Positions 9,447 to 58,660 of a stretch of 64,000 bases of DNA are shown one piece after another. Within the stretch, counting starts at the first letter, position 1; every line of letters starts with the position of its first letter. The position numbers were made by a program, and so were the translations under genes. Source of the DNA: a virus; the IMG/VR virus record IMGVR_UViG_3300022555_000009; one strand, 5' to 3'. The notes beneath the pieces are model-generated. The model was not told the DNA's origin, searched no databases, and saw only the letters and a program-made list of their open reading frames with translations.

Positions 9447-9550
9447 TATCTTTAGAAAGGAGGTGATCCTAATCTAAAGGTGACGAAAATGTACAAAAAT
9501 AAAAGGTAGGAATATGCTAAGAGGCTCTCTGAAAAGAGAGCCTCTTTTTT
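9447..9550 (+). ncRNA. Candidate small RNA with perfect 17-nt complement to the 16S rRNA 3' end
   Basis: TATACT -10-like box at 9435-9440. TAGAAAGGAGGTGATCC (9453-9469) lies within a hairpin (CTTTAGA 9450-56 / TCTAAAG 9473-79). The element ends at a strong terminator. Confidence 0.45.
9519..9550 (+). terminator. Rho-independent terminator between convergent genes
   Basis: AAGAGGCTCTCT-GAAA-AGAGAGCCTCTT plus a T-run. Confidence 0.9.
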
Positions 9551-11366
9551 ATACACTACTCATCTCAAATATCATCTTCGCTGTATTACGATCTAAGTAC
9601 TGTTGAGTACCGAACTTTTTAGTTGTGAAGTCCTTATCTTCCAAATTCATATCTCGAACACAATCTAAGGAGTTATCAATAATTAGGAGATAGGTGTACA
9701 CCGTCTTCTGTTGCCCAATACGATGAATACGAAATATAGATTGGTTATACTCTGTATAATTCCAGGTTCTATCAAAGTAAATAGCTATATTAGCCTCAAC
9801 AATAGTCACGCTGCTATTAAGAACCTGTATGCCCGCAATAAGAATATTGCGATCTTTCGAGGCTTGAAAATCTGCTATGATATCTGCCTTGAATTCATCC
9901 AGGGTCCTCCCCTTCGGTACTTTGACTTCCCCGTTGATGAGATAGGGCTGCCTCTTTTCTAAGATTACCGCCAGTTCTTGACCGACTGTAGGATGAGAGC
10001 ACCATATAATAATTTTTTCGTTAGGATGCTTTTCTAAGAGATCATCCAAAGCTCCCATCTTACAGTGATTAGAGAACTTAAATTTTTCGACCTTGCGAAT
10101 AAGATTGTCTGGTAACTTTGTTTCATGGTTTAAAAGTAAGCTTGGATTATCGATGGCTAAGGAGAGATAGGGGAAAGAATTAAACACAGCTCGAGAGTCT
10201 ATGCCTCCGTAAAATTCTTGTATGGCTCGTAGTTTTTCTACAACGATTCCTTGGTAGATTTCCTTCTGCTCATCAGATAGCTCCACATAAATCTTCTGTA
10301 TGAAGTGCTCAGGCAACTCCAAAACGTCGTCAGCAAATCTTCGAGTAGACACTGATTTTACAATATCAGCCATCTCTATAAGTTTATTGGGTTTGAAGTA
10401 ATTGATAGCATATAAAGAAAATCTATTGCCAGTATCTGCATACTCTTGTAGCCACTCGAAGTAAGAGAAATTCTTTACTAAGGCGGGATCTAAGAACTTC
10501 AGCTGTGAGTAGTACTTCTCTTCTCTGTCTGCAGGAGTTCCTGTTGCAATGTATCTATACTGAAAGAAGGGAGCGGCAAGGTGTATGGCCTTAGATTGCC
10601 TGGCTTGAGGATTCGCGATATTATGTGATTCGTCCAGGATAATGATGCCAACATCTCCCTGAAGCCAATCTCGAAAGGGAATAGGACACTTACGATAATT
10701 CTTTGAATTGGATATCTCTTCCTGATACTCATCAGATACTAAGAGGAAAGATCGGTAGCTGCAGATGACAACATGAGATTTCACGTCGTCAAAAGGTCGC
10801 CGGTTTTTAATTCCCCCAACTCTAACATCTGATGAGTCATAGTTAGAAAATCTCCCCAGTTCTCTCTTGATATTGTAAGTGCCAGACCCTGAGGTAATGA
10901 TAAGTACTTTTCTGACGTCTTTGTATTTACGGAGTAATTCAAGGGTGTTACATAGTATCCAGCTCTTCCCGGTACCTTGTTCATTAAAAAGAGCATATCG
11001 GTTGTAACTGGAGCATTTAGATAGGTCTTCGAGTTGGAAATATTCATGCGGCGCCTTCCCCATAATGGGTTGTACTTTTAAATCATCTTTAGTAAAAGGA
11101 ATTCTTTGAAATTCGATCGATCTCTTGGGAGTCTTCAATATCTCTATCTGAGACCATACTTCGTTTGTAATATAAAGTTCTTCTACGTCTCCCAAAGCGT
11201 CTATGACAGAGTCATAAACAGACGTCGGAATACACCACTGTTTACTCTTTGGTTCAAACTGACATCGATATCTCTTATATATAGTAAGATCTGTATCGAA
11301 GGCGTTGACCGAGAATAATTGACTGGCATATATTTTATCGTCGCGAACTAGAATCTGAATGCTCAT
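9549..11366 (-). CDS. SNF2-family (SF2) helicase/translocase
   Basis: EQGTGKS (Walker A), ILDESH (motif II), ATGTP (motif III) and QSIFRIHRIGQ (motif VI). Confidence 0.92.
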   Translation of the reverse strand: MSIQILVRDDKIYASQLFSVNAFDTDLTIYKRYRCQFEPKSKQWCIPTSVYDSVIDALGDVEELYITNEVWSQIEILKTPKRSIEFQRIPFTKDDLKVQPIMGKAPHEYFQLEDLSKCSSYNRYALFNEQGTGKSWILCNTLELLRKYKDVRKVLIITSGSGTYNIKRELGRFSNYDSSDVRVGGIKNRRPFDDVKSHVVICSYRSFLLVSDEYQEEISNSKNYRKCPIPFRDWLQGDVGIIILDESHNIANPQARQSKAIHLAAPFFQYRYIATGTPADREEKYYSQLKFLDPALVKNFSYFEWLQEYADTGNRFSLYAINYFKPNKLIEMADIVKSVSTRRFADDVLELPEHFIQKIYVELSDEQKEIYQGIVVEKLRAIQEFYGGIDSRAVFNSFPYLSLAIDNPSLLLNHETKLPDNLIRKVEKFKFSNHCKMGALDDLLEKHPNEKIIIWCSHPTVGQELAVILEKRQPYLINGEVKVPKGRTLDEFKADIIADFQASKDRNILIAGIQVLNSSVTIVEANIAIYFDRTWNYTEYNQSIFRIHRIGQQKTVYTYLLIIDNSLDCVRDMNLEDKDFTTKKFGTQQYLDRNTAKMIFEMSSV

Positions 11367-37549: not shown

Positions 37550-38094
37550 TATGTACCTCTATTATTTAGTGAGTTTTCGGTATTAGTCGAACCCACTTCA
37601 GCTATGATATTTTTCGATAACTGAGAAAGTACATATTGCTGTGTTTGCCACGACTCCAATAGTCGGCGTAGAAAAGACACCTTATGATCTGCTACTAGGA
37701 CTTCATCATTTAAAGCTCTATACTCCTCTTTGAATTCCTTGCGCACCAACATCTCTAGTTCTTTAGCTGCTACCCACTTCTGAGCTGACATATCAGATCG
37801 ATTTTCTCTATGCCGTATGTCAATATACTTATCCGCATACCAGTCGTCGAATTCTTCCTTCTTCTTAGTATGGTCAATCTTGGCTACATTGTAAAGACTA
37901 AGAAGAGTTAAATATATTAGCTGATAATTGCATAATGCTGAATTGAGTTCGTGAAAAGAGATTTCTTTGTCGGATCCGATGTGAGAATACTCTTTCATCT
38001 TTTCGATTTGAGCATTGACAAAAATTATAAAAAGCTCCTCCGGAGGAGCTTTTTGATCAAGAATACTGGGCTGCTTCACTGGTCGCTGTTCCAT
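37549..38094 (-). CDS. UvsY-like recombination mediator candidate
   Basis: All-helical 181 aa protein translationally coupled to recA. It contains FDDWYADKY...ELEMLV. Confidence 0.55.
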   Translation of the reverse strand: MEQRPVKQPSILDQKAPPEELFIIFVNAQIEKMKEYSHIGSDKEISFHELNSALCNYQLIYLTLLSLYNVAKIDHTKKKEEFDDWYADKYIDIRHRENRSDMSAQKWVAAKELEMLVRKEFKEEYRALNDEVLVADHKVSFLRRLLESWQTQQYVLSQLSKNIIAEVGSTNTENSLNNRGT

Positions 38095-40223
38095 TACTCA
38101 TCTCCTAAGTCGTCCGATTCTTCGTCGGCTTCTAGAGAATCTAGTACTGTCGCTTTAGTAAATGATTCATTTACTATGCGTTTACAATCTTCAAATTTTT
38201 CTGGGTTGGCTTTGAGGTAAGTCAAAAGCGAATCCCTACCTTGTCCTTTCCAACCCCAAACATCGTTGGACATCCAACCTGCGCCAGCGACCTTTACAAT
38301 ACCTAGATCCATGATGAACTGGATATACTCGTTATCGGGATCAAAACCAGTCTCATACTTTAGATCAAGTATGGCGGATCTCTTAGGAATACCCACTTTG
38401 TTTTTCACATTTCGAATCTTTACAACGTTACCTATAACAACTTTCTTTATAGCGATATCTTCCATCTTAGATACTTTAGCTCTCCAAGAAGCGTAGAACT
38501 TAATAGCTCTTCCACCAGGAGTAATATCTTCTGGCTTTCCATTAGGAGACCACCCACCTATATTATCGCGAACCTGATTAAGAAGAATAAGGGTAATATT
38601 GAATCGAGATATATAAGGATTTAATTTACGTAGCCCCTGCGAAAATAGCTTAGCAGTGGCTCCAAAATTCGATTTCCCATATACATCTTCGACTTCAGCT
38701 GCTGAGGGTGTTGCTGCAATGGAATCATAAATAATGCATCCTATCTGGCCTGTCGCAACAAGCTCTTCCATAATAGTAAAAGCTTCCTCTCCGTTCATAG
38801 GCCTCACGAATATGAGATCTTCATCGGCAAGACTTAGTCCGGCTACCTGAGCGTACTTCTTTTCGAAAGAATGTTCCATATCAATAAAGAGTACCATCTT
38901 AGGTCCACCATCTGTTCTTCGTTGGAACTGACCTCCAATATAGGAACTGATAACAGTATTGTGTGTAGGAATAAAATTATCTGTAATATACAGATGCTCT
39001 ACATCGTCTACCATGATACATGAACATTCTTCTTTTCCCACATACTCGACGCTTTTGATATATTGATATCTAATTGTCTTCCTTGACTTCGAAAGAAATA
39101 AATCTTTTTTTCGCTCCAGAGCGAAAGGAGATCCCAACTTCTGTGGCAGCGCCAAGTGTAGCCTATACGATAGAGCTCCTTCTTTTTTTTCTCCTTTGTA
39201 GGTGTACGAAGTCTTTTTTACTTTTATCCTGGCTGTGCCTCCCAGGCTATGAACAATATCGACAACATCTTCAGCTAGCTTTTTGCTAGAGGAAGAGTAT
39301 TCAATGCCGCTGTGTTTAACATCCTTGCCAATATGCCCATCGGTGTCCAGTAAACCCCGAAGCAAATTCATTCTATCCTCTATAGAAGACCATTTATAAT
39401 CGAAGGGAATAAACTTATCATAAGAATTTCTACCTTGAAGGTCTAGTTGTTTTAGTATTGCCGGAAGAGACCCCTTCGACTTTATTCTCCAATCATAGAA
39501 GGAGGCTTGAGACAACTCAAACCCCAAAATACTTTTTATCGAATCTATAAGTTGTTGATCTTCAGAGGAAAATTGAGTCATAGCCTGAGTCATGCATCCA
39601 TCACCCAAAAGAAGTCCTAAAACATAAGGATCTAAGGGCAAGCTTTTTTTAAGGAACTCCTGAGGCTGAATCAATTCTAAATAATCTGCGTCAGGACTAT
39701 TTATTTTCCCATATTTAGAAAGAGACTTATTGATATTTTTTGCCAGATCCTCTGTGGTCACTGTTTTTAAGCAGGAATCCTCAAAATTTTTAGATTTTCT
39801 AGCCCATCTTGTAGAATACTTTGAAGACTTAACGTTCCATAGATGATCTCTTCCCGCCCTTGTTGTAGATCCATCTCGAAGGGTTATCTCAAATACATCT
39901 TTTTCTCCCTGCGGAAATACACCCGTGACATTAGTTACTCTCCCTGAAGGAGTACAAACCTTATCACCTACCTTAAGATTTCCCATAAGGGTCCATCCGG
40001 TTGGTGTCAGTACCCTAGAACTATTAGGCTGTTCTTTGCCACCGCTCTCCGGCCCAAAGAATTCTATTATACGACCGAGAGGAACTCCTCCACCCATAAT
40101 ATAATTCAGCTGAGGAGAAGACATCACTAATCTCCTCACGAGACCAGCTTCCTCTACATTGGGTAGGGAGTCGGAGTAATCCTTCTTTAATTTTGTTAGA
40201 ACTTTTGTTAGTTCCTTATTCAC
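38094..40223 (-). CDS. recA: RecA/UvsX recombinase with intein
   Basis: GGGVPLGRIIEFFGPESGGK/T, FIDMEH, IYDSIAA, LNQVR, TPGGRAIKFYAS and VKNKV. The spliced product is about 350 aa. Confidence 0.95.
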   Translation of the reverse strand: MNKELTKVLTKLKKDYSDSLPNVEEAGLVRRLVMSSPQLNYIMGGGVPLGRIIEFFGPESGGKEQPNSSRVLTPTGWTLMGNLKVGDKVCTPSGRVTNVTGVFPQGEKDVFEITLRDGSTTRAGRDHLWNVKSSKYSTRWARKSKNFEDSCLKTVTTEDLAKNINKSLSKYGKINSPDADYLELIQPQEFLKKSLPLDPYVLGLLLGDGCMTQAMTQFSSEDQQLIDSIKSILGFELSQASFYDWRIKSKGSLPAILKQLDLQGRNSYDKFIPFDYKWSSIEDRMNLLRGLLDTDGHIGKDVKHSGIEYSSSSKKLAEDVVDIVHSLGGTARIKVKKTSYTYKGEKKEGALSYRLHLALPQKLGSPFALERKKDLFLSKSRKTIRYQYIKSVEYVGKEECSCIMVDDVEHLYITDNFIPTHNTVISSYIGGQFQRRTDGGPKMVLFIDMEHSFEKKYAQVAGLSLADEDLIFVRPMNGEEAFTIMEELVATGQIGCIIYDSIAATPSAAEVEDVYGKSNFGATAKLFSQGLRKLNPYISRFNITLILLNQVRDNIGGWSPNGKPEDITPGGRAIKFYASWRAKVSKMEDIAIKKVVIGNVVKIRNVKNKVGIPKRSAILDLKYETGFDPDNEYIQFIMDLGIVKVAGAGWMSNDVWGWKGQGRDSLLTYLKANPEKFEDCKRIVNESFTKATVLDSLEADEESDDLGDE
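38958..40034 (-). mobile_element. Class 3 intein (359 aa) with LAGLIDADG endonuclease, inserted in the Walker A motif
   Basis: Starts EQPNSSRVLTPTGW with no N-terminal nucleophile. WCT triad: DHLW, CSCIMV and PTHN/T. Endonuclease motifs LGLLLGDG and LRGLLDTDG. Confidence 0.92.
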
Positions 40224-44125: not shown

Positions 44126-44890
44126 TTACGTGGATAAATAATTACTAGTAAAATCGGCCGAAGTAGCAATAGTCTGAGATTTAAATGTTATGCTTATTTC
44201 TCCAGATATTGGGTATCCCTTGGAGTCAAGTTTATTGGAGAATTTAAAATTAGCTGTTTCTGCTAAGTAATTTTTTAAATGTAGAAAATCGGGGAAACTA
44301 TTATTCGCTCCGAAAGCTACGGTCCAGGTACTCGATACAGTATCTGACGACCGAGTCGCGGTTTTAAAATAAGATTCTCCGAATGCTGAAAAAGCGCTGA
44401 AGGCGTTGGTGGCCGGAGCGGTTAATAAGTTCCCTACGGCAATCTCAGAGGGCACGCAAGCAGACATTAGAGTCATAATGGGACTAAAAACTTCTGTGTT
44501 GCCGTCCCAGGCATTCATTTGTCCGAATTGTAATTTGAGAGTGATAGAAAAGTTTGCAGGTAAGGATTCTTTCCAAGCACTAGCCATATAGTACTTATTA
44601 TACATTTTTTGACCTAGAGTATCCGAGGCAGTTGTTATCGCGGAGAACACGCTACTGATGGCGCCGGTGCCAGCAGCCTTTTTCATAGATTCTTGAGCTC
44701 CTTCAAAGAAAGCTTTGACTGGTTGAAATAACTGGTTAGTTATAGAAAATCCTATGTCATCTATATAGGGAAAATATAAGTCTAGGGATGCGGGTCCTGT
44801 CCCTGTTACGGTGCTTTTAGTTAATCTAACATAAGGACTACCGTTAGGAAAAGTTTTTGGGTCCGAGTAAAGAGCGGTGCTTAGGGCCAT
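44126..44890 (-). CDS. Tail tube initiator / gp48-like protein
   Basis: DSKGYPISGEISITF tube-fold motif. It follows the tape measure gene. Confidence 0.6.
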   Translation of the reverse strand: MALSTALYSDPKTFPNGSPYVRLTKSTVTGTGPASLDLYFPYIDDIGFSITNQLFQPVKAFFEGAQESMKKAAGTGAISSVFSAITTASDTLGQKMYNKYYMASAWKESLPANFSITLKLQFGQMNAWDGNTEVFSPIMTLMSACVPSEIAVGNLLTAPATNAFSAFSAFGESYFKTATRSSDTVSSTWTVAFGANNSFPDFLHLKNYLAETANFKFSNKLDSKGYPISGEISITFKSQTIATSADFTSNYLST

Positions 44891-44904: not shown

Positions 44905-46890
44905 TTACGAGTATGATTTTACTTTAAGTTTTGGAGCTTCTGGAATATTATCCGGTCCCTCAGAGGTGGGAGCATTAGATATTTTTTCTAAAATATTATT
45001 CTGCTTGCCCATCGCTTTTGAATCTTCCTGAGCTATACTAATCAATTGTCTCAATAAATCTGCTTGCTCGTTGATTTGAGTAACAGAAGATATTTGTTCT
45101 CCAGCATGTATTGTAGCTGCAACTGCTTCACCAGGGACCCCAGGAATTACGCTTCCTGGGGAATAGTCCGTACCTATCTCAAAAGATGTTTCCCCTACAG
45201 AAGATTTAAACTTGCTCCAGTCGCTTATGGTTGATTTTTCATATCCTGGGATAGAATGTAGCAGATCCAGCTGTTGCGCCCCACTTAAGCCCGCTATGGG
45301 GATGCTTTGACCATCAAATACTATGAAATCATCCATGGCTCTATTTCTGCTATTGTAAGGGCTAACTAGTTTTCGTCTACCTTTTGCTGATAATAATCCA
45401 GTTGAGTCGAGTTGTGCAGCTGCGCCTCGAGACCCGGGAATAGTAGTGGGTTCAGCCAAGGCGGCGGCCGCGGTGCCAATTTCAAAAGAGTTTGCCTTGG
45501 AAGAGATAAGCGCGATGGCATCTAGATCATTTTCTTTTCCTTCCTTTTTGAGTTTAGCTCTCTGCTCAGACGTTAAAGATTTTGCTAATTCCTTTGTTCT
45601 CTCTTCGTAAGACTGGCCAGAAATTCCCTCGTATAAGGCAAAAGCTAAAGCGGCTGCTGCTGCGATGCCTAATCCTATGGCGCCTGCTTTAGCGACAATG
45701 GGTAGAGCTTTCTTAACTAAGTCCTTAGTTAACTTTCCACTCATCAAAGCATTTATTATGCCGCCCTCTATGTCTCCTTCTACTCCGGGGCCTCCACCTG
45801 AAGCACTTATATTTTTAGTATCCTTCATAAGAGCGTCTAATTTTGATCCGATATATAAAGCAGGCAAAGCGTATTGTACAGGAAGCTGCAAGATATCTCC
45901 AGCAGAAGGATCTTCAGATTTTACAACATTTATTTTTTCATCGGCGCTTCCACGACTTCCACCGCTTCCACCGAAGGCGCCCCCTGTCTTATACTTGCCT
46001 CTGCCCCCGCCAGGTCCGCGCGGAGGTCTTCCATTGTTAATATCTATAATCTCCGGTACGCTTTCTAACAAGCCTGCTAATTTCTCTTGGTCTATTCCAG
46101 CTTTTTCATAAGCAGCGGTGCTGGCTCCAATAGCGCTTTCTCCGAGACCTCTATCGAGTAAAAACTTACTAGTAGCTGCCTGCGATTTTAATTCAGCGCC
46201 TTTATTAATAGCCTCATGGCCTCTGCTCATATACCCAGACTGAAATTCTTTGGTTGGAGCATTGAGTATTCTATCTAATCTATTCCCGGAGTTATCCCCC
46301 GAAGTCAAGCCTAGCTTATCTGTCGCTGTACCGAAGAGCTTCAAGAAAGGCATTTTCTCAAATATTTCTTGTTGTATGTTCGAGGCAAATTGTTGATCAT
46401 CAAACTTACGCGTTTGTTTGCCTGCTTCTCTTCCTGCTTTCTTAGTAGAGGCTCTATATTCTTTGGCGTCCTTTTTATCGCTAAGGAGAGCATCTAAAAG
46501 TTCACTGTTTAGCTTTTTCTGATCTTTCTTTAAATCGTCCAAATATCTCTGTAATTGATTAGCTGTTTTGATGCTTGCATCTATAGATTTCTTTAACTCA
46601 TCTGATGTCTTTCTTTCCTCGATAGACATCGCAGCATATTTCTTATCTGCTTCTTCTTTTTGCTTCTGAGCGGCCTCTTGCATCTCTAAGATTTTAGGGA
46701 AAAACGTACTAGATAATAAATCAAAATTCTGAGTCGTCTTCCCTAAAGCTTTGACAAGCGCAGTCTTAAAGCCATCAGGCATATCGCCCATTGCTTGTGT
46801 GAGTTTTTTTATGCCTTTATCAATATCAGCCATGGAATCACTGACGCCCGGGGGCATCATGCCATCTCCCTCACCAACTACGCCCGCCAT
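44905..46890 (-). CDS. Tape measure / baseplate hub-like protein
   Basis: Coiled-coil N-half, hydrophobic Ala/Gly segment and ATIHAGEQI motif. It lies downstream of the chaperone pair. Confidence 0.6.
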   Translation of the reverse strand: MAGVVGEGDGMMPPGVSDSMADIDKGIKKLTQAMGDMPDGFKTALVKALGKTTQNFDLLSSTFFPKILEMQEAAQKQKEEADKKYAAMSIEERKTSDELKKSIDASIKTANQLQRYLDDLKKDQKKLNSELLDALLSDKKDAKEYRASTKKAGREAGKQTRKFDDQQFASNIQQEIFEKMPFLKLFGTATDKLGLTSGDNSGNRLDRILNAPTKEFQSGYMSRGHEAINKGAELKSQAATSKFLLDRGLGESAIGASTAAYEKAGIDQEKLAGLLESVPEIIDINNGRPPRGPGGGRGKYKTGGAFGGSGGSRGSADEKINVVKSEDPSAGDILQLPVQYALPALYIGSKLDALMKDTKNISASGGGPGVEGDIEGGIINALMSGKLTKDLVKKALPIVAKAGAIGLGIAAAAALAFALYEGISGQSYEERTKELAKSLTSEQRAKLKKEGKENDLDAIALISSKANSFEIGTAAAALAEPTTIPGSRGAAAQLDSTGLLSAKGRRKLVSPYNSRNRAMDDFIVFDGQSIPIAGLSGAQQLDLLHSIPGYEKSTISDWSKFKSSVGETSFEIGTDYSPGSVIPGVPGEAVAATIHAGEQISSVTQINEQADLLRQLISIAQEDSKAMGKQNNILEKISNAPTSEGPDNIPEAPKLKVKSYS

Positions 46891-46898
46891 GTATCACC

Positions 46899-47120
46899 TC
46901 ATACCCAATTTAAAAGCCCTGATGATCCAATATTAGGATTCTGTTTTATCAATCTAGAAATATCCTCAATCTTTTTTTCCAACAATTTGTACTGAAAATA
47001 AAACTCATGGAAGGGCAGACTTGTCAGATCTGATATCCCGTTGTGAGTCTTAGTCGTCATAAGAAATATCATACTCATCAGAGTCTGATAATCGTATGGC
47101 TTGAAGAATATCCAAGAGTC
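46899..47120 (-). CDS. Second tail-assembly chaperone frame (gp51/gpT-like), probably reached by +1 frameshift; not in ORF track
   Basis: Open +1 frame DSWIFFKPYDYQTLMSMIFLMTTKTHNGISDLTSLPFHEFYFQYKLLEKKIED...WV*, ending at the RBS of the tape measure gene. Confidence 0.65.
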   Translation of the reverse strand, partial: DSWIFFKPYDYQTLMSMIFLMTTKTHNGISDLTSLPFHEFYFQYKLLEKKIEDISRLIKQNPNIGSSGLLNWV

Positions 47121-48117
47121 GAAAAGAAAACCTCCGTGTACATACTTCTTTCGTTATAGGGTTCTTCAATTCGATATTAGGATCTATGCCGAAGTCTAAC
47201 TTAGAAAACTGAGTATCAACCTTCTTCGTAATATTCACATCTAAGCGAGGATCCTCACTATACTTAAGTTTTTCTTCAATAGTAGACTTGCTGAGATCAA
47301 TACCATTAAAAGCTACTATGTAAAGGGCTTTGGACAGCTTGCTCATATAGATAGCCTTATTTATATTATGTAGCTGCCAATCTAGGAATTCCTTCTCAGG
47401 TATGACTGGTAAATCCGTAGATCCCTTTTCAGATCTTGCTTCGCGCAGGTCTATTAATTGCTTTATCTTTTCAAATCTTAAATCTTCTTTTTCAAACTTA
47501 TCATCTGCAGCTTTCTTCAAAGCTAAAGAATCCCCGATTCTAGTGTACGCTAAGAATTTTACTTCCACGTAACTAGGATCATTTTTCGGAAATCGATTCT
47601 TTATAGTAACATATGATTTTACTTCACTAGGAAAATCTTTGATTTTCACATTGCGTAAGTCCACATCAACCTTAGGCTTCCATTTTCCGGCAATAAGGTT
47701 ATTGGCCTGCTCTTCTTGTCCATGAGCTTTAAGCCAGTCTAAATCCTCCTGGTTCCAAGGAAAATCTGTAGACGTAATGAGAGGTGTAAAGAAATTCGCA
47801 TATATCTTTATTAAGAGCTCCACGACGGCCTTCTCTGGCCACTCTTCTACTTTTACAGGTTCTAGGATGAGATCTTTTAACAAGTGTATAAGTCTCTCAG
47901 GCAAAAGTTCATCGGAGGCCATTGAGAGATCAATAAGATTTTCCGTATTAAAGTTTTTCACATGTATTATCTCAGGTACTCCTAGTTTTCCCTTCGTAGA
48001 AAGATTGATAGGAATATATCCGCCAGGAATATTGAGTTTCAGAGACTGCTGTACCTTGTCTATGATCTTTGTGCTTTGAGTCATGTCGTCATTTTCGTCG
48101 ACTACTTCGAACGGCAT
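47050..48117 (-). CDS. Baseplate hub / tail assembly chaperone (gp26-like)
   Basis: Start MPFEVV after a GGGGAG RBS and the ACTAATT motif. Contains IPINLSTKGKL...LLIKIYANFF...FGIDPNIELKNP. Confidence 0.7.
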   Translation of the reverse strand: MPFEVVDENDDMTQSTKIIDKVQQSLKLNIPGGYIPINLSTKGKLGVPEIIHVKNFNTENLIDLSMASDELLPERLIHLLKDLILEPVKVEEWPEKAVVELLIKIYANFFTPLITSTDFPWNQEDLDWLKAHGQEEQANNLIAGKWKPKVDVDLRNVKIKDFPSEVKSYVTIKNRFPKNDPSYVEVKFLAYTRIGDSLALKKAADDKFEKEDLRFEKIKQLIDLREARSEKGSTDLPVIPEKEFLDWQLHNINKAIYMSKLSKALYIVAFNGIDLSKSTIEEKLKYSEDPRLDVNITKKVDTQFSKLDFGIDPNIELKNPITKEVCTRRFSFRLLDILQAIRLSDSDEYDISYDD

Positions 48118-49172: not shown

Positions 49173-49721
49173 TTACTCCTTCGGCTTGATAAGAACATAT
49201 GCCTTGCCCAGTCCGATATCATAGGTAACTAAGGTGTATCCTAGTTTTTTCGATAAAAGCTTGGCATAACTATCATATAAAGGTTGTCTCGGAATATCTC
49301 CGGAGAACATCAATATATCGATATTTTCTTCGTGCTTTTCTAAGTAGCCTAAAAGAATGTCCTTCACGGTAGCGAAGACTTCAAATACTGTCTTCTTACT
49401 CAAGCCCGATACATTCTTATAAACAGGATCATTGTGTATGGGTTCCAAATAAGCGAATTCAAAAAGAGACATGTGGTAAGGAGGATTTAGTAAATCTAAA
49501 ATCTCCATGCTCTCCGGATCAGATCTATCCAACAAGCAGTAATTTAAAACCCCGTTCTGAGTCCTCATTGTAACTTGGGAGATATTGACTCTATAAGTAC
49601 TATTATCGGAGGTTTTAAATTTCGAAATAATTTGAGAGTCTTTTCCGTTCTCATCTCTTATTATTTTAAAAGGCGTCCAAGGTCTTACCAGGTCGCCTAG
49701 TTCTTTAATCTTCGTCTTCAT
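49173..49721 (-). CDS. Hypothetical protein, paralog of 49705-50334
   Basis: IKELGDLVRPW, FKTSD, EVFATV, RQPLYD and KAYVL are shared with its neighbour. Confidence 0.7.
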   Translation of the reverse strand: MKTKIKELGDLVRPWTPFKIIRDENGKDSQIISKFKTSDNSTYRVNISQVTMRTQNGVLNYCLLDRSDPESMEILDLLNPPYHMSLFEFAYLEPIHNDPVYKNVSGLSKKTVFEVFATVKDILLGYLEKHEENIDILMFSGDIPRQPLYDSYAKLLSKKLGYTLVTYDIGLGKAYVLIKPKE

Positions 49722-50334
49722 CGTCTTCATCGTCGTCATCCAGTAGAATACTAGGATCGAACAAAATGTAGGCTTTACTCCTGTAAGCAGTTTCGCCCGC
49801 CATTAGATAGAATCCAAGATGTTTCTCTATCATTTTAGAAAATCTATCATATAATTTTTGTCGAGAAGGTTCTTTCGCGGAAAATTCTAGAGCATCAAAC
49901 TGATCGTAATATGTTTCTAAAAAATTCAACATACATTCTTGTACGGTGGCAAATACCTCCAGGCCTACTCTGGGGCCGAGATTTAGAATATTAAATGACT
50001 CTTCCTCTTCATTTTCTTCCTCACCGGTGGTTCTCGCAAAAGTTATGATGTAACTACTTATTGGAACCTGCGATGCATCAGATTCTTCGAGATATTTATG
50101 TAAGTCCATGAGAGGTGTGACATATTGTTCACCCTCGGCGGGTTCACCATTAAATTCCTCTACAAGATCAGCAGGCCATAGCCCGTAGTACCAAAATAAT
50201 ACCTTATAAAAACCGCCGTCTGAAGTTTTAAAATAATAGTATATATTTTTGTGCTCTGAGGACTCATCTTCCTCACTAATTTCAGCTTTTCTTTTCCAAG
50301 GGCGTATCGATTCGCCGAGCTCTTTGATTCTCAT
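49705..50334 (-). CDS. Hypothetical protein with acidic tail, probable internal head protein
   Basis: MRIKELGESIRPW, FKTSD, EVFATV and FSAKEPSRQKLYD. ACTAATT (50339-45) lies 4 nt before the ATG. Confidence 0.7.
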   Translation of the reverse strand: MRIKELGESIRPWKRKAEISEEDESSEHKNIYYYFKTSDGGFYKVLFWYYGLWPADLVEEFNGEPAEGEQYVTPLMDLHKYLEESDASQVPISSYIITFARTTGEEENEEEESFNILNLGPRVGLEVFATVQECMLNFLETYYDQFDALEFSAKEPSRQKLYDRFSKMIEKHLGFYLMAGETAYRSKAYILFDPSILLDDDDEDDEDED

Positions 50335-50336
50335 TA

Positions 50337-52037
50337 TTAATTAGTCTTTGTAAAAGTATATACTATGGTCCCACAGTCCCATACTCTATCGTATCCATTG
50401 ATTTGCATATTCTCCCATTCTGTTTTTTTAAAATCGAAGTTAGGCAGTACCTTCTTTAACTTGTGTTTCTGAAAGGTTAGTCTGTGAATAAGTTCCTTGT
50501 AATCTTTCGTATAGTACATGCCAGGAGAATTCGTGTGAGAATATTCGAACCCTAAATTAAAAGTACTCTTACCATTAAAAATTCTTTTGTCAGTATACGA
50601 TAGAACTGTACTACCTAGTGGTAGCGATTTTACAACTTCGTTCCACAACTTTGATATACCGCCGACTACTACTGTGTTCAAAGAGCAAGCAAATCTAGTT
50701 AACTCATACGTATTTTTCTTAAATCTATTTTTAGACACGACTATGTGAGCCACTAAATTTCCTTCTTTGTCTTTTAGACCATACCTCATAGAACCTTGGG
50801 CGTACCCTTGAATGTGATTAACTTCAAAAAAAGATCTGCTATCAGCAGGGGACACTTGAACTATAGAGCATGATCTAGCTCCTACTTTTCTGTCACATAT
50901 TCCTAATTTATTTTTTATGATGGACTTAACTACATCAGATTTATTGATCCACTCGGAGTCCCAAAAATGTAGTAAAGTAATATTCTGAGCTTCACAAAGA
51001 CTAGTTTTATTGAAATGATATTGTGTTCCTCTCTGGCCCCTAATTTCTGAGTGCCAGTATATTTCATTCAATTCAATAGCTAAGTTCCTATCTGGTAAGT
51101 ATATATCTAATTCAAGCGGGGATATAATTCTACGGGAATTCTCTACGATTCTTTCATTAGGCAGTACTTCTTTGAGCCAAGCGACGATTTCCTTTTCTAT
51201 GATCCCTTGCGAGCCGGGGGGATAACACGTTGGACACCGGGGATACTTTCCATTAGCTAAGTAATCTTCAAAGGCAGATCCACAAGTATTACATTGAAAC
51301 TTGTAATACTTAACCTGTCCTTCCGTATCTACAGTAGAGATATATTCCTCTTGACTGAATAAAGGAGTAGCTTTTGTTATTCTTTCTGAAGACATCAGTT
51401 TACTCCAGAAATCCTGTCTCTTAGTCTTAAGAACTTTTTGCCAGATATCCGGACCATAAATGCTACATTCATTGCCATACTTTATTAGATTGGTTGCTTT
51501 AGCCTTCTCATGAGGCTTATTTCCGTGGGCACTAAAAGAAGTAATTTGAGCTTTTTGCGCGGCCTCAGACCTTACTTGATGAACTTTATCACCATACTTC
51601 TCTTCCCACTTCTTCCTAATATAATTTTTATCTTGAAAGATATTATCTACGCCAAATCTTTCCTTTGTAGTTTTCCTTATTTTAGCTTGAATCTCTGCAG
51701 ATTGGGCAGGCCTTTCTACTCCGTATCTTTCTAGGTTTGTTTTGGCTACTTTGCTTGAGGTTCCCTTAGCTTTGCAAGAGTTAGAACAGAACTCTCTATA
51801 TCCTTCTTTAAAAGATATAAACTTAACGGAGGAGCCACATATCATGCAAGTCGGCTTTGTAGTAAAATTATGGGATAATAAATATAACTTCTCGGATGTT
51901 GATCCTACTGTGGGACACTCGGTATTAACAATATCTAGCCACTCTTTTCTGTTTTTTAAAAACGTAGGAAAAGCAGGATTGAGTAGTCCGTTTGATCTGA
52001 ACATCCCTAGTTTTTTTAGTTCTTCCAGTAGCACCAT
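50337..52037 (-). CDS. Hef-like homing endonuclease
   Basis: PTCMICG..FCSNSC zinc motif, TNLERYGVE-type repeats, ELDIYLP...AIELNEIYWHS (PD-(D/E)XK-like), GARSC, NHIQG, YELTRFA and RVWDCG. Confidence 0.8.
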   Translation of the reverse strand: MVLLEELKKLGMFRSNGLLNPAFPTFLKNRKEWLDIVNTECPTVGSTSEKLYLLSHNFTTKPTCMICGSSVKFISFKEGYREFCSNSCKAKGTSSKVAKTNLERYGVERPAQSAEIQAKIRKTTKERFGVDNIFQDKNYIRKKWEEKYGDKVHQVRSEAAQKAQITSFSAHGNKPHEKAKATNLIKYGNECSIYGPDIWQKVLKTKRQDFWSKLMSSERITKATPLFSQEEYISTVDTEGQVKYYKFQCNTCGSAFEDYLANGKYPRCPTCYPPGSQGIIEKEIVAWLKEVLPNERIVENSRRIISPLELDIYLPDRNLAIELNEIYWHSEIRGQRGTQYHFNKTSLCEAQNITLLHFWDSEWINKSDVVKSIIKNKLGICDRKVGARSCSIVQVSPADSRSFFEVNHIQGYAQGSMRYGLKDKEGNLVAHIVVSKNRFKKNTYELTRFACSLNTVVVGGISKLWNEVVKSLPLGSTVLSYTDKRIFNGKSTFNLGFEYSHTNSPGMYYTKDYKELIHRLTFQKHKLKKVLPNFDFKKTEWENMQINGYDRVWDCGTIVYTFTKTN

Positions 52038-52545: not shown

Positions 52546-54015
52546 TTATAGTACACGGATGTTGTTGATTTGGATGATCCCGAAGTATTTTGGATTAAGG
52601 ACCTGGTAGTCACCGAAGGACGCCAAGCCTGCTTCCTTGTAGAAGTTCTTTCTCTGGAGTGAACCAGTGCTGAAGAATGGTACGAGTACTCCGAAGGCCA
52701 CGCTAACGTCTGCCTCGTTATTCTCGTTCTTCCATACGCAAAGAAGCTGATTATCCGGGATAATCTGAGAAGGAACCTTGAACACTGGAATGTTGTAGAG
52801 CTCTCCGACCTGGTATCCACCGATTCTTGGCTGTGCACCCTTGGTTGTGAAACCAGCGTTGAGTCGTAGATAGGTAACAGCAGCAGGACCACCAACGATC
52901 CTCGATACGCCGCCTCGCATAATGTCGTTAAACATTACGTCACCAACACGCTCGATAGCCTGAGAAGCAGTCTGCGCGGTATGGATATAGGAGTCCTGAG
53001 TACCGGCGCCACCTTCAGCGTCAAACTGAAGAATTGGGTAGCCGTTCGTTCGTGCAGCAGCCCAAGCAATTCTTACAGCGCGGAAGTCCAGAGCCTTCTT
53101 GATTTCCTGTCCAGCTGCGTCCATGAGAACTTCCTCAGTGGAAACACCAACAGTAGAATCAAGATACAACTCAGACATGGTCGTCCAGCTAACGCCCAAG
53201 GTCATAGGTCGAACCCTGAACTGATAATCAGTCATCACGAGGTCAACTTCACCGAGAGACGTACCAGAAGTATCCAATTCTGATGCATACCTACCGATAG
53301 CGAGTGTAATTACACCAGCATCAGATCCAGACAGCGCATACACGCCGGCACCGGAATAAGAAATAGTAATATTTAGGCCGGCGCGAATAGACCAAGTACC
53401 AGACCTGTTTTCCATAGCTACGACATCACCGTTAGCGTCATAGCAAATTGCGTATCCCTGAATATAACCGAAGCTAAATTCAGTGGAACCACCAGCGAAG
53501 GTGATCGATGTTGCTGAAACAACGACGCCGTTAGCCATTTCCTCAGGATACCTATCTTCCTTACCTTCGTAAGTAACTGCACTGTTCTGGAAAGCTCCGG
53601 GACCAGTGTAGGATCGGTTAATACCAGTGGAAACACCATACTTGTCAACGTAGATAGGCTTAATGTACTTGATAGAATCGCGAGCAGTCTCCATGGCGAA
53701 CTCAGTGAAGAGCTTGTCACGAATACTGTTAGGATAAGCAAGCCTTACAAGACGAATCATGTTTTCAGGCGTAGCAGCGAACTGTGAAGAATACGTGGTT
53801 TCAGACAGCCTGGACATGTGCCGTGCCTGATTCTCTAAGAGGATCGCGGTATTCATAGCCTTGCGATCTTCCATGGCCTTTAGGCCCTCTCCGATCTCAG
53901 GAACTCGATACCACTTCTCTAGGAGGCGGCTCGCACGAGCTTCCCGCTCGGTATAAATAGGATCGGACTCATTGAGCTTCATCCTATCTTCAGTCATTCT
54001 TGACTTAATACTCAT
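52546..54015 (-). CDS. Major capsid protein (T4 gp23-like)
   Basis: LLEKW...TAILLENQ, LVRLAYPNSI, WTTMSEL, EIKKALD and NPKYFGIIQI. Codon usage is biased. Confidence 0.92.
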   Translation of the reverse strand: MSIKSRMTEDRMKLNESDPIYTEREARASRLLEKWYRVPEIGEGLKAMEDRKAMNTAILLENQARHMSRLSETTYSSQFAATPENMIRLVRLAYPNSIRDKLFTEFAMETARDSIKYIKPIYVDKYGVSTGINRSYTGPGAFQNSAVTYEGKEDRYPEEMANGVVVSATSITFAGGSTEFSFGYIQGYAICYDANGDVVAMENRSGTWSIRAGLNITISYSGAGVYALSGSDAGVITLAIGRYASELDTSGTSLGEVDLVMTDYQFRVRPMTLGVSWTTMSELYLDSTVGVSTEEVLMDAAGQEIKKALDFRAVRIAWAAARTNGYPILQFDAEGGAGTQDSYIHTAQTASQAIERVGDVMFNDIMRGGVSRIVGGPAAVTYLRLNAGFTTKGAQPRIGGYQVGELYNIPVFKVPSQIIPDNQLLCVWKNENNEADVSVAFGVLVPFFSTGSLQRKNFYKEAGLASFGDYQVLNPKYFGIIQINNIRVL

Positions 54016-56242: not shown

Positions 56243-58660
56243 CTATTGAAGTAGTTGCTGCGTTTTTTGTCGATGTAAAAGATCCTCGTCACTTAAATCT
56301 TCTGCAGTGTCAGCGTCAATTTGATCTTGCTCAAAAGTACTTTTTATATCCCCAAAATTTAACTTATCAGGTTTGGTTTTTGGGTTTTGTTTTTCCATTA
56401 TAATCTGTACGGACTCTTGTAAGCTTTTCTTTTTCTCGGGAGTCAGGCCCCCCTTAGCAGCCTTCAAGGTTTCATATACGTCTCTCATGTTCGAAGGAAT
56501 CTCTGAGTACTTATAATGGCGATTATTTATCGTTGCTTCTTCTAAATCTAGCCATTTCTGCATGATAGCTTCTTGTACAATTTCTCTTGATTCAACGTAA
56601 CGTACTGTGAGTTCTCGCACTCGAGCTTCGCGCAAGCGATTCTTCTTCCAACGAGTAATTTCTTCCTTAGCTCGAGGCTCTTCTTCCTCTTCGCCCTCTT
56701 CGTTGCCAGTTTCATCCTCTCCGGCAGCTAATTCTTCTCCAGCTCCAGCGTTTTCTTCTCCGCCTTCTACGGCTCCAAATCCTCCGCCACCAATTTCAGT
56801 ACCGAACTCATCACCGCCCTCAAATTCTTTATCCTCATTATCGCCCTCAAGACCCTCTCCTTCGACTTCTGAGGGCTCTCCAAAATCATCTCCTCCGCTG
56901 TCTCCGTAAGCTCCAAAATCGTCAGCAGACCCTCCCGAGCCTCCGCCAATTGACGAAATGCCTCCGCCACCACCTGTTCCAGACTCATCTCCTCCAAGGT
57001 CATCGGCTGCCTCCGTATTATCCAGATTCCTCTTCTTTACCCACTTCTTAATATCCTTAGGATCCAAGAAAGAGAATTTAGTTAAAATATCTTGGACGAC
57101 TTCCTGAGGCAAAGGATCATTGATGGCCCCTATAATACCAGACACTGTATCTATAACGTCTTTACTCAGAGATAAGCTATTCGTTTTTGATTGAACTCTC
57201 TCGTCCGAGGATTCTTCGTTAGGGAATTTCATTGAAAGAACGAAAGGCTCGGTATAGTCGAATTCACCTGTAATAGCGAAGTGTAGTCTAAACAGATTAG
57301 ATAATCCGTCGATGAATGCTGATTGTAAGGTGTATACTCTTCTTGCGAAGGGTTTGAATTGCTCGACCAGCGAGATTGCAGACACTCCGAAATTGCCCCA
57401 TTCATTAACTAAATATCCCTTTGGAATTCCCGAAGCAATAGCCACGTCGTCCCGGTACATTTCGAGGTCGCCGATAGCATTAACATCAATGTTAGGAGAG
57501 TGTACGGATACGTTGACAAGACCGTCAGGTACCCACATCTTCGTATTAACGGAGTAGGCTTCTGAACTATTACCTTGCTCGCCAATATTTTCATATTGCT
57601 CACGAGCTTCATTGATTTTTTCGAACTGCTGAGATTCGTCCATACCGGGCGTAGTTTTTACACTATACACTGTGATAGGATACGACATTACGCGTGCGAT
57701 AGACTGCAAAGTTTTTGTGGCGTTATACTGTCTAAAGGGCGCCAGGGCCTTTAAGAAAATAGATTTACCCATTGGATAAAACTCGGATTGCTCTGAATTC
57801 AATCTAAAATGAGAAACGCACCAGGGGGGCAATACCAGATCGCCATCCGTAACGAAGCCGAATAGCTTCTTGTCGAAGAGATCAGCATACTCGTCATTTT
57901 CTTCGTCATTTAATCGTGAGAATAACATCTGCAGCTTTGAGTCTCGAGAAAGAGCTGCTACAATGTTATTATTCAAAGCAATCTTAGATGCAACTTGGAC
58001 GGGATCAAACTCTAATCGTTCGGTCACTTGGTGAACATCCAGAGGATTAATTCTTATGACGCCGTCTCTAGTTACTTTATTAGACCAAAAAGCATCTCCA
58101 GACCAGGCCATATTGTACATAGCGGAGCGCACCCTGTTTTGAGTAACTCCCCATTGCCTCAAGAGATTTTCCATTCTGGTTTTCATTCTAGGATCAGAAC
58201 AATCGATATTTATAAGCTGGCCCTGTACGTCTAACTGTGTTCCTTCATCAGCATACAGATCCACAGCCATAGATAGGAAAGGATCATTCGTTATAGCAAA
58301 TTGAAGCTCAGCCAAGCGCTTTAACCTATCCTGATAACCGGTGAAAGTATCAGTAGTATCAGTGAGCCAGGCGTCGAATAATGTTTCGAGGCGCGAAGAA
58401 AGCTTCGTTGTAAAAGTCTTGCCGAGTTTGCCCTGAGCAATTCTCATATCGGAATCAGGATCTACTTTTACGAAATCTACGTTATGCTTTGCGAATGTAC
58501 CTTTATTTCCTCCCGATCGGCGGAAGCCGAAAAGAGAGGTAAGATTTCTTACGAATCGAAATCGTTGTTTCTGAGATTTTGCTAGTTGAGCATCCTTACT
58601 GCTGTCAGAACCGACGCCTGGAAGAGGTCCAGCTCCACCACTATTTAATTTAGCCGCCAT
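56243..58660 (-). CDS. Portal protein (T4 gp20-like) with long acidic Gly-rich C-terminal extension
   Basis: AVDLYADE, GDAFW, VSHFRL...FYPMGKSI, IASGIPKGYL and FARRVYTLQ. Confidence 0.9.
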   Translation of the reverse strand: MAAKLNSGGAGPLPGVGSDSSKDAQLAKSQKQRFRFVRNLTSLFGFRRSGGNKGTFAKHNVDFVKVDPDSDMRIAQGKLGKTFTTKLSSRLETLFDAWLTDTTDTFTGYQDRLKRLAELQFAITNDPFLSMAVDLYADEGTQLDVQGQLINIDCSDPRMKTRMENLLRQWGVTQNRVRSAMYNMAWSGDAFWSNKVTRDGVIRINPLDVHQVTERLEFDPVQVASKIALNNNIVAALSRDSKLQMLFSRLNDEENDEYADLFDKKLFGFVTDGDLVLPPWCVSHFRLNSEQSEFYPMGKSIFLKALAPFRQYNATKTLQSIARVMSYPITVYSVKTTPGMDESQQFEKINEAREQYENIGEQGNSSEAYSVNTKMWVPDGLVNVSVHSPNIDVNAIGDLEMYRDDVAIASGIPKGYLVNEWGNFGVSAISLVEQFKPFARRVYTLQSAFIDGLSNLFRLHFAITGEFDYTEPFVLSMKFPNEESSDERVQSKTNSLSLSKDVIDTVSGIIGAINDPLPQEVVQDILTKFSFLDPKDIKKWVKKRNLDNTEAADDLGGDESGTGGGGGISSIGGGSGGSADDFGAYGDSGGDDFGEPSEVEGEGLEGDNEDKEFEGGDEFGTEIGGGGFGAVEGGEENAGAGEELAAGEDETGNEEGEEEEEPRAKEEITRWKKNRLREARVRELTVRYVESREIVQEAIMQKWLDLEEATINNRHYKYSEIPSNMRDVYETLKAAKGGLTPEKKKSLQESVQIIMEKQNPKTKPDKLNFGDIKSTFEQDQIDADTAEDLSDEDLLHRQKTQQLLQ

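Follow-up and report, generated by a model that had tools for sequence, protein, structure and literature searches.

A candidate programmed +1 frameshift at a conserved UUU_CGA site in a gp26/gp51-like baseplate-hub chaperone gene of an uncultured lake phage

Chaperone pairs made by ribosomal frameshifting are a textbook feature of long-tailed phages, almost all known cases being −1 shifts, and the standard review describes the G/GT-type tail chaperone frameshift as conserved in long-tailed phages "except T4" (PMC5009743). In lambda gpG/gpGT (Levin 1993; Xu, Hendrix, Duda 2004, 2013, 2014, as outlined in that review), two overlapping frames lie just upstream of the tape-measure gene, and a short and a C-terminally extended form are made from one gene in an arrangement that is kept despite low sequence similarity. 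Here we describe a locus of the same layout in IMGVR_UViG_3300022555_000009, a large uncultured lake phage of which a stretch of 64,000 nucleotides (nt), hereafter the window, was analyzed. On its minus strand, a gene for a 355-amino-acid (aa) protein (47050..48117), a gp26/gp51-like baseplate-hub (tape-measure) chaperone by fold and neighborhood, overlaps at its 3′ end a second open frame that leads up to a probable tape-measure gene. We consider it highly likely, on comparative sequence grounds, that a programmed +1 frameshift at UUU_CGA yields both a short and a long protein from the 355-aa gene. Underlying this reading are the site itself, dual coding downstream of it, homology of the +1-frame domain to the in-frame C-terminal domain of relatives, and the absence of an alternative start.

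The locus departs from lambda G/GT in several respects. The shift would be +1 at UUU_CGA, whereas lambda shifts −1 at an XXXYYYZ heptamer; the protein has about 355 aa, a gp26/51-like fold and a 73-aa extension, compared with about 140 aa for a lambda gpG-like protein; no Pfam or PHROG chaperone family is matched; and a constant proportion between short and long form, as well as binding of the tube by the extension, belong to the lambda system.

For the site itself, the closest described counterparts lie elsewhere. In bacteria, UUU is known to be prone to +1 slippage when a pyrimidine comes next (UUU_Y), and the minimal cassette of influenza PA-X reads UCC_UUU_CGU (Atkins et al. 2016, PMC5009743). 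As in influenza A PA-X (Firth 2012, cited through that review) and in the UUU_CGN motif of amalgaviruses and related RNA viruses (PMC9559581 among others), the core here is UCN_UUU_CGN; tRNA-Phe is predicted to move from UUU to UUC while the A site holds an arginine CGN codon, and RNA structure downstream is not involved. Those are RNA viruses translated by eukaryotic ribosomes, in contrast to a bacterial double-stranded DNA phage, and relative to PA-X the A-site codon is CGA (or CAR) rather than CGU and half of the lineages carry an element resembling a Shine-Dalgarno (SD) sequence that has no eukaryotic counterpart. In Yersinia YopN-TyeA, also covered in that review, UUU plus a pyrimidine likewise makes bacterial ribosomes shift +1 with no stop codon involved, but UUU_Y sites of this type are mostly low-level errors or found in a single species, whereas the site described here is family-wide and followed by a conserved domain. 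The Escherichia coli prfB gene, which encodes release factor 2 (RF2), offers the other bacterial parallel, a +1 slip of the P-site tRNA with an SD-like element upstream; the A-site codon there is UGA, not the sense codon CGA, the spacer is 3 nt instead of 6 nt, and at our locus the SD appears dispensable in 11/23 lineages.

Finally, the locus resembles T4 gp26/gp51 in fold, in having gp29-like and gp48-like neighbors and, as proposed here, in providing two related forms of one chaperone type, although T4 achieves this with two separate genes and no frameshift, and the window's protein is larger. We found no published account of frameshifting in gp26/51-like genes, nor of any phage that shifts +1 at UUU_CGA. 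Very probably, judging from the conservation patterns below, a T4-type hub chaperone family here uses a +1 slip on the UUU_CGN core of eukaryotic RNA viruses.

The slip site and its two reading frames

The 355-aa gene starts at an ATG at 48117 with an SD sequence (GGGGAG) in front and stops at a TAA (47052-47050); its product, identical to the database protein P0001, ends in ...RRFSFRLLDILQAIRLSDSDEYDISYDD. Near this 3′ end the minus-strand codons read CGG (47136-47134), AGG (47133-47131), UUU (47130-47128), UCU (47127-47125), UUU (47124-47122) and CGA (47121-47119), and the second UUU, which lies 24 codons ahead of the frame-0 stop and is followed by 23 sense codons, is the candidate slip codon (site at 47119..47124). 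Slipping from UUU to UUC (47123-47121) would give entry to a +1-frame coding segment of 73 codons plus TGA (46899..47120), whose codons run from GAC at 47120 to GTA (46904-46902) and encode DSWIFFKPYDYQTLMSMIFLMTTKTHNGISDLTSLPFHEFYFQYKLLEKKIEDISRLIKQNPNIGSSGLLNWV, the predicted C-terminal extension of a long trans-frame product. Its TGA (46901-46899) falls inside GAGGTGA, the ribosome-binding site of the next gene, 8 nt from that gene's ATG at 46890. On its 5′ side the +1 frame is closed by a TAA (47154..47156) ten codons before the UUC, and its first ATG (47076..47078), the start of a listed 59-aa open reading frame (ORF; 46899-47078), has no SD-like sequence ahead of it (context cgattatcagactctg ATG). 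The peptide predicted across the junction is FSF/DSWIFFKPYDYQTL (the slash marking the slip), also written ...FSFDSWIFFKPY..., with the tryptic form FSFDSWIFFKPYDYQTLMSMIFLMTTK. An initial annotation, made from the letters of the window, had proposed an SD-assisted +1 shift at this CGG AGG UUU UCU UUU CGA motif (47136-47119) into a 73-codon frame with an upstream TAA and an SD-less ATG, ending on the tape-measure ribosome-binding site; all of its coordinates were confirmed, and the junction peptide that it gave is what a +1 slip would yield.

To place the site in an evolutionary context, we used 28 homologues of the 355-aa protein from metagenomic collections (33-70% identity) and a comparative set built from the DNA of 26 loci in which the C-terminus is present, 23 of them distinct after removal of near-copies (29-70% identity), with a codon alignment anchored on the Phe of a conserved F-x-F-R motif. 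The median end branch of the protein tree is 0.59 changes per site, and synonymous sites are therefore saturated between most pairs. Against this divergence, the slip Phe codon is TTT in 26/26 loci, always as TTT-C and with an entropy of 0 at all three codon positions, while TTT makes up 0.61 of Phe codons in the upstream background of the homologous genes. The following codon is CGA in 22/26 loci, CAA in 3/26 and CAG in 1/26, with no other Arg codon in any of them (among the 23 distinct loci, CGA in 20, CAA in two and CAG in one); in the same background CGA accounts for 0.09 of Arg codons. The initial annotation had staked its proposal on conservation of the motif, which thus held for UUU throughout and for CGA in all loci except the four with CAR. 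The flanking codons vary: the one directly before the slip UUU is TCC, TCT, ACC, ACG, TAC, GTT or CCC, and the Phe position two codons 5′ of the site is TTC, TTT, TAT, TAC or ATT, leaving only UUU-C invariant. No XXXYYYZ heptamer is present at the site, and the frame relation is +1.

Downstream of this codon, constraint on the DNA changes abruptly. Synonymous-site identity, defined as the share of same-residue frame-0 pairs that also use the same codon, is 0.434 over the whole upstream alignment (28178 pairs) vs. 0.775 downstream of the site; in windows it ranges between 0.35 and 0.59 over 160 upstream codons, stands at 0.45 in window −8..−1, reaches 0.78 in window 0..7 and stays at 0.74-0.81 from the site to the stop. 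The stretch concerned is the dual-coding overlap formed by the last 23 frame-0 sense codons and the stop (47050..47121). Entropy by codon position follows the same boundary: frame-0 position 3, the most variable position upstream (1.55 bits), falls to 0.85 after the site, where the highest value is instead found at frame-0 position 1 (1.02), which serves as the +1 wobble position. A single residue illustrates the effect, as the residue following Arg-Leu is Leu, Met or Val in frame 0 and is always encoded by NTG (TTG, ATG, GTG, CTG), which preserves a +1-frame TGG (Trp).

The +1 frame itself behaves as a coding frame from the slip site onward. Across the 23 distinct loci it contains 544 stops in 6724 codons upstream of the site, or one per 12, yet is open for 51-89 codons downstream in 23/23, and this combination of a stop-dense frame upstream with an open one downstream in all 23 loci is, by sequence comparison, more than chance. 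Conservation of the encoded peptide, FDSWIFFKPY..LMNMI..MT..T.NSIESL..LPFHIF, sets in at the slip-site Phe, with 15 codons still to go to the first +1 ATG. RNA structure does not account for this conservation, since RNAalifold returned 0 consensus pairs for −24..+96 nt and the single-sequence fold of the window's own site region has a z-score of 0.07; a search of Rfam gave only a sub-threshold chance miRNA match at the region.

These patterns bear directly on an explanation free of recoding, in which the 59-aa gene (46899-47078) would start at its own ATG by coupling or re-initiation and the conservation ahead of that ATG would reflect frame 0 only. In 22/23 lineages the +1 frame has an ATG at position 15 or 17, gene callers begin most database relatives at the internal ATG, and the sub-family of P0041 and P0048 has an ATG at domain position 4, all of which would suit such a start. 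Nevertheless, both the synonymous suppression and the conservation of FDSWIFFKPY begin 15 codons before the ATG, exactly at UUU_CGA, the ATG has no SD before it, and the +1 ATG at position 15 is lost in one locus (L007) and displaced in two others (L016 and L026, with Gln in its place). The last +1 stop lies 4-24 codons 5′ of the site in 23/23 loci, at only 4 codons in L001, L024, L025 and L007, and in 11/23 loci, including the window, the stretch from that stop to +1 position 14 contains neither ATG nor GTG nor TTG. Together with in-frame fusions that align from the slip-site Phe onward (see below), these observations make independent initiation as the sole source of the product very unlikely. 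The initial annotation had named this start near 47078 as the outcome that would overturn its proposal, and it fails to explain the data, because constraint sets in 15 codons upstream and the fusions join at the same Phe.

In-frame relatives and the direction of the shift

Searching 1.84 billion representative proteins with a profile of the +1 peptides, we identified 59 relatives, most of which are orphan ORFs of 40-100 aa called by gene callers from an internal ATG. Three long proteins carry the +1 domain in frame: P0050 (416 aa), P0053 (455 aa) and P0056 (443 aa). In each of them the profile match begins at its position 1, the slip-site Phe, corresponding to residue 327 in P0050, 357 in P0053 and 333 in P0056. 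P0056 aligns both with the frame-0 body (hhalign E 4.7e-38, residues 15-344) and with the +1 domain (E 2e-8, residues 332-390), and the joint alignment is continuous, with ...KYEFS-LDSLIALKPF... against ...RRFSF/DSWIFFKPY.... As a natural in-frame relative, P0056 was folded in place of the window's trans-frame protein, and the model of this fused form has a predicted local distance difference test (pLDDT) score of 90.6, with 91-97 in the C-terminal domain (residues 332-405). In the DNA of two fused loci the Phe codon is free, being TTT followed by AGT in L033 and TTC followed by TCC in L034, and no second frame is open; the constraint on UUU_CGA is therefore seen only where the frame is broken.

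The existence of such fusions could also be taken to mean that the gene in its real state is a plain in-frame fusion of the P0056 kind, and that the broken frame stems from an assembly error or a decaying gene. We find this barely credible, given that the same frame relation and the same site recur in 23 distinct sequences from independent samples and assemblers, and that the frame-0 tail (DILQAI...SDEYDISYDD) is itself kept in 28 proteins. Nor is the fusion a sequencing error, because the P0056 cluster lists nine 443-aa members on their own, different contigs of up to 578 kb.

The fusions also inform the direction of the shift. A −2 ribosomal shift, or slippage of RNA polymerase on the T run, would produce the same long product, as −2 and +1 reach the same frame, and the window offers four T's (C UUU UC) and L026 five. 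Mu-type phage chaperones are said to use a −2 shift. For −2, however, tRNA-Phe would need to pair with CCU, CUU or ACU, the preceding codon varying while only UUU-C is invariant, and for transcriptional slippage the T runs of 3-5 are too short for efficiency and their length is not conserved. A +1 product would read FSFDSW and a −2 product FSFFDSW, with one extra Phe, and the spacing from F-x-F to K-P-[YF] in the fusions equals that of the +1 product, which weakly favors +1 over −2 on this sequence comparison. Overall, a −2 or transcriptional route seems highly improbable.

Returning to the +1 slip, the proposed mechanism would run as follows. Most ribosomes would keep to frame 0 and yield the short form, with its terminal helix and acidic tail. 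At UCU UUU CGA (47127-47119), with CGA waiting in the A site, the P-site peptidyl-tRNA-Phe would slip from UUU to UUC, and decoding would resume at GAC in the +1 frame. The anticodon of tRNA-Phe is GAA. CGA is reportedly read inefficiently in E. coli, through an A:I wobble pair (Curran, 1995), and Schwartz and Curran (1997) are said to have analyzed +1 shifting at UUU-pyrimidine sites. The resulting long form of about 405 aa would combine residues 1-332 with 73 new residues across the junction given above, thereby exchanging the helix and acidic tail of the short form for a helical domain of about 73 aa that is constitutive in other relatives. If lambda G/GT is a guide, the short and long forms may work together in a defined proportion while the hub and tube are assembled on the tape measure. 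We infer the slip itself, its +1 rather than −2 direction, its efficiency, the role of the SD-like element and the set-ratio function from the comparative patterns described here.

Several further features were seen among the relatives of the +1 domain. In one sub-family (P0041, P0044, P0047, P0048 and P0062), a small ORF is called from an ATG at domain position 4 (MIYWQP.., MLYWRP..), and the superfamily may therefore express the domain in different ways, by in-frame fusion, by +1 frameshift and by separate initiation. Distant relatives (L007:3935-4198, L010:4019-4285 and L030:2468-2713 as well as P0056, P0041 and P0048) have a Pro/Met-rich C-terminal tail, ...PSMPSF.MPS..F, which may be a docking peptide; the window's clade is without this tail and ends in NPNIGSSGLLNWV. 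In two loci, L010 and L011, the +1 stop is followed by an intrinsic-terminator-like hairpin instead of a tape-measure gene.

The upstream GGAGG element

An SD-like GGAGG (47131..47135) is located 6 nt 5′ of the slippery UUU. We measured its duplex with the 16S 3′ end over the 14 nt that end 3 nt before the UUU, obtaining −10.2 kcal/mol in the window. A duplex of −7 kcal/mol or stronger occurs in 12/23 lineages, vs. 2.1% of equivalent in-gene windows, and the 6-nt spacing is fixed. The values are bimodal, twelve lineages lying at −8.4 or stronger and eleven at −6.0 or weaker, and the SD-bearing lineages are scattered over the tree, a pattern that takes 6 changes to explain, no fewer than 3 of which are imposed by well-supported branches. 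The second Arg is AGG in 8/8 of the lineages with Arg-Arg at these positions, AGG being about 20% of background Arg codons. An SD of the prfB type (AGGGGG) is found in L027 and L005.

Given its excess over the 2.1% background and the retention of the site without it in eleven lineages, we conclude that the SD is selected where present yet dispensable. Its 6-nt spacer matches that of an initiation site and not the 3 nt of prfB, for which reason we read it as a pause or accessory stimulator; GGAGG would thus probably pause or stimulate the ribosome here and in roughly half of the relatives, as an accessory element and not as a requirement. The "SD-assisted" shift of the initial annotation stands in that a strong SD-like element is present in 12/23 lineages, and falls short in that eleven lineages lack it and its spacing is not that of prfB. 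Among the genes of the window, 26/44 starts use an SD.

Several observations weigh against the frameshift reading as a whole. Beyond its difference from the +1-stimulating prfB spacing, the GGAGG element belongs to a motif that is common inside the genes of this phage (67 seen vs. 24 expected). CGA is not especially rare in this phage, making up 17% of Arg codons in the genes of the 64-kb window, which is too common for its usage to prove slow decoding, and the window contains no tRNA genes. Nor does the window show any avoidance of in-frame TTT_CGA (3 seen vs. 2.6 expected), so the bare motif is probably weak or context-dependent. The invariance of TTT and CGA could partly reflect a need for Phe-Asp/Glu in the long product. 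The ATG retained at +1 position 15 or 17 in all but one lineage also counts here, and some separate initiation of the small protein from the ATG at 47078 may occur as a minor start. Lastly, the tape-measure identity of the downstream gene is inferred from its position and length.

The other two in-frame TTT_CGA occurrences were inspected individually. The second lies at codon 231 of a gene at 9549-11366 (minus strand) with a 57-codon open +1 frame behind it, probably by chance, and the third, in a gene at 56243-58660, has a +1 frame that closes after 2 codons.

Identity of the chaperone and its neighbors

Among GenBank phages, nothing similar to this region turned up at the DNA or protein level, nor to the 355-aa protein or the 661-aa protein encoded downstream, and Pfam and PHROGs gave no match for the 355-aa, 59-aa, 661-aa, 118-aa or 435-aa proteins. 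The AlphaFold2 (AF2) model of the 355-aa protein has a pLDDT of 82.5. Foldseek found nothing in the PDB at E <= 1e-3, and a wide VIA-align structure search returned only generic helical hairpins (Z <= 7). Against BFVD, Foldseek matched 39 predicted viral structures at E <= 1e-3, with template modeling (TM) scores by target of 0.5-0.66 for the top matches; the best matches (E 5e-10 to 1e-5) are named "baseplate hub subunit", "Baseplate hub assembly protein, bacteriophage T4-like" and "baseplate hub assembly chaperone". The model of the fused relative P0056 gave the same BFVD list.

Table 2 of PMC3004832 gives T4 gp26 (208 aa) and gp51 (249 aa) the role of hub assembly chaperones, and both proteins belong to Pfam PF12322 (T4_baseplate). 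The 355-aa protein does not match PF12322 at E <= 0.01, and hhalign comparisons with T4 gp26 (E 0.03, probability 1.7%) and gp51 (E 0.27) are not significant. With these family and profile matches absent, the protein is gp26/51-like by fold and neighborhood and not a demonstrated family member. The models suggest that it resembles baseplate-hub chaperones of the T4 gp26/gp51 type and not lambda gpG. The "T4-like gp26/gp51" label of the initial annotation therefore applies at the level of fold, PF12322 itself not being matched, and its remark that the +1 frame reads like a gp51/gpT domain found no sequence support.

Gene order is consistent with this identity. Downstream lies a 661-aa gene (44905..46890, minus strand), a probable tape measure protein, followed by a gene for a 254-aa protein (44126..44890, minus strand) that resembles the gp48/PmgG baseplate-tail tube junction protein (phrog_1114 "PmgG-like", E 4.8e-11) and serves as a synteny anchor. 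P1 PmgG has been assigned as T4 gp48-like (PMC9024508). Because it sits between the gp26/51-like and gp48/PmgG-like genes, the 661-aa gene occupies the place of T4 gp29, the tape measure. A long ORF is found downstream in most relatives, and the counterparts of the 661-aa gene are 558-952 aa long. The 661-aa protein itself shows no similarity to T4 gp29 and no Pfam or PHROG match, and has a weak feature-level neighbor in Tape_meas_lam_C.

If the proposed shift is real, it suggests a function for the unexplained duplication of gp26 and gp51 in T4; speculatively, the two paralogous T4 genes of this fold class may be another way of arriving at two forms. A broader reading holds that UUU_CGA is a widely used bacterial +1 recoding signal, convergent with that of influenza and plant RNA viruses, that two frameshift-made forms are general for the hub chaperones of T4-type and giant myophages, and that T4 swapped the slip for the paralogues 26 and 51, which would close the "except T4" gap in the G/GT rule; we regard this as possible, and lean slightly against it. 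For the family at hand, the comparative evidence, natural in-frame fusions included, is as strong as sequence data allow. The shift would supply a short bacterial +1 cassette that occurs with and without an SD, suggest that quite dissimilar tail modules share a need for chaperones in two forms during tail assembly, and give annotation a rule by which two ORFs now split by gene callers are joined. T4 itself has an annotated and known parallel just upstream of its tape-measure gene 29, where gene 28 begins within the last 56 nt of gene 27 and reads them in a different frame (AF158101, L032, 10349-10404).

Elsewhere in the window, three further features on the minus strand were noted. Adjacent ORFs at 49173-49739 and 49705-50334 (188 and 209 aa), which overlap by 35 nt, are paralogous and share an N-terminal IKELGxxxRPW, and the upstream member of the pair ends in an acidic run, DDDDEDDEDED. 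Next to them, at 50337-52037, is a 566-aa HNH-type homing endonuclease (phrog_3339, E 1.5e-106), with the major-capsid gene (52546-54015) on one side and the tail and hub genes on the other. Among the replication genes lies a 709-aa ORF (38094-40223) whose residues 62-428 match terminase-large-subunit PHROGs and whose residues 432-604 match RecA-fold families (UvsX-like, DNA repair); it may be a composite or intein-bearing helicase or ATPase.

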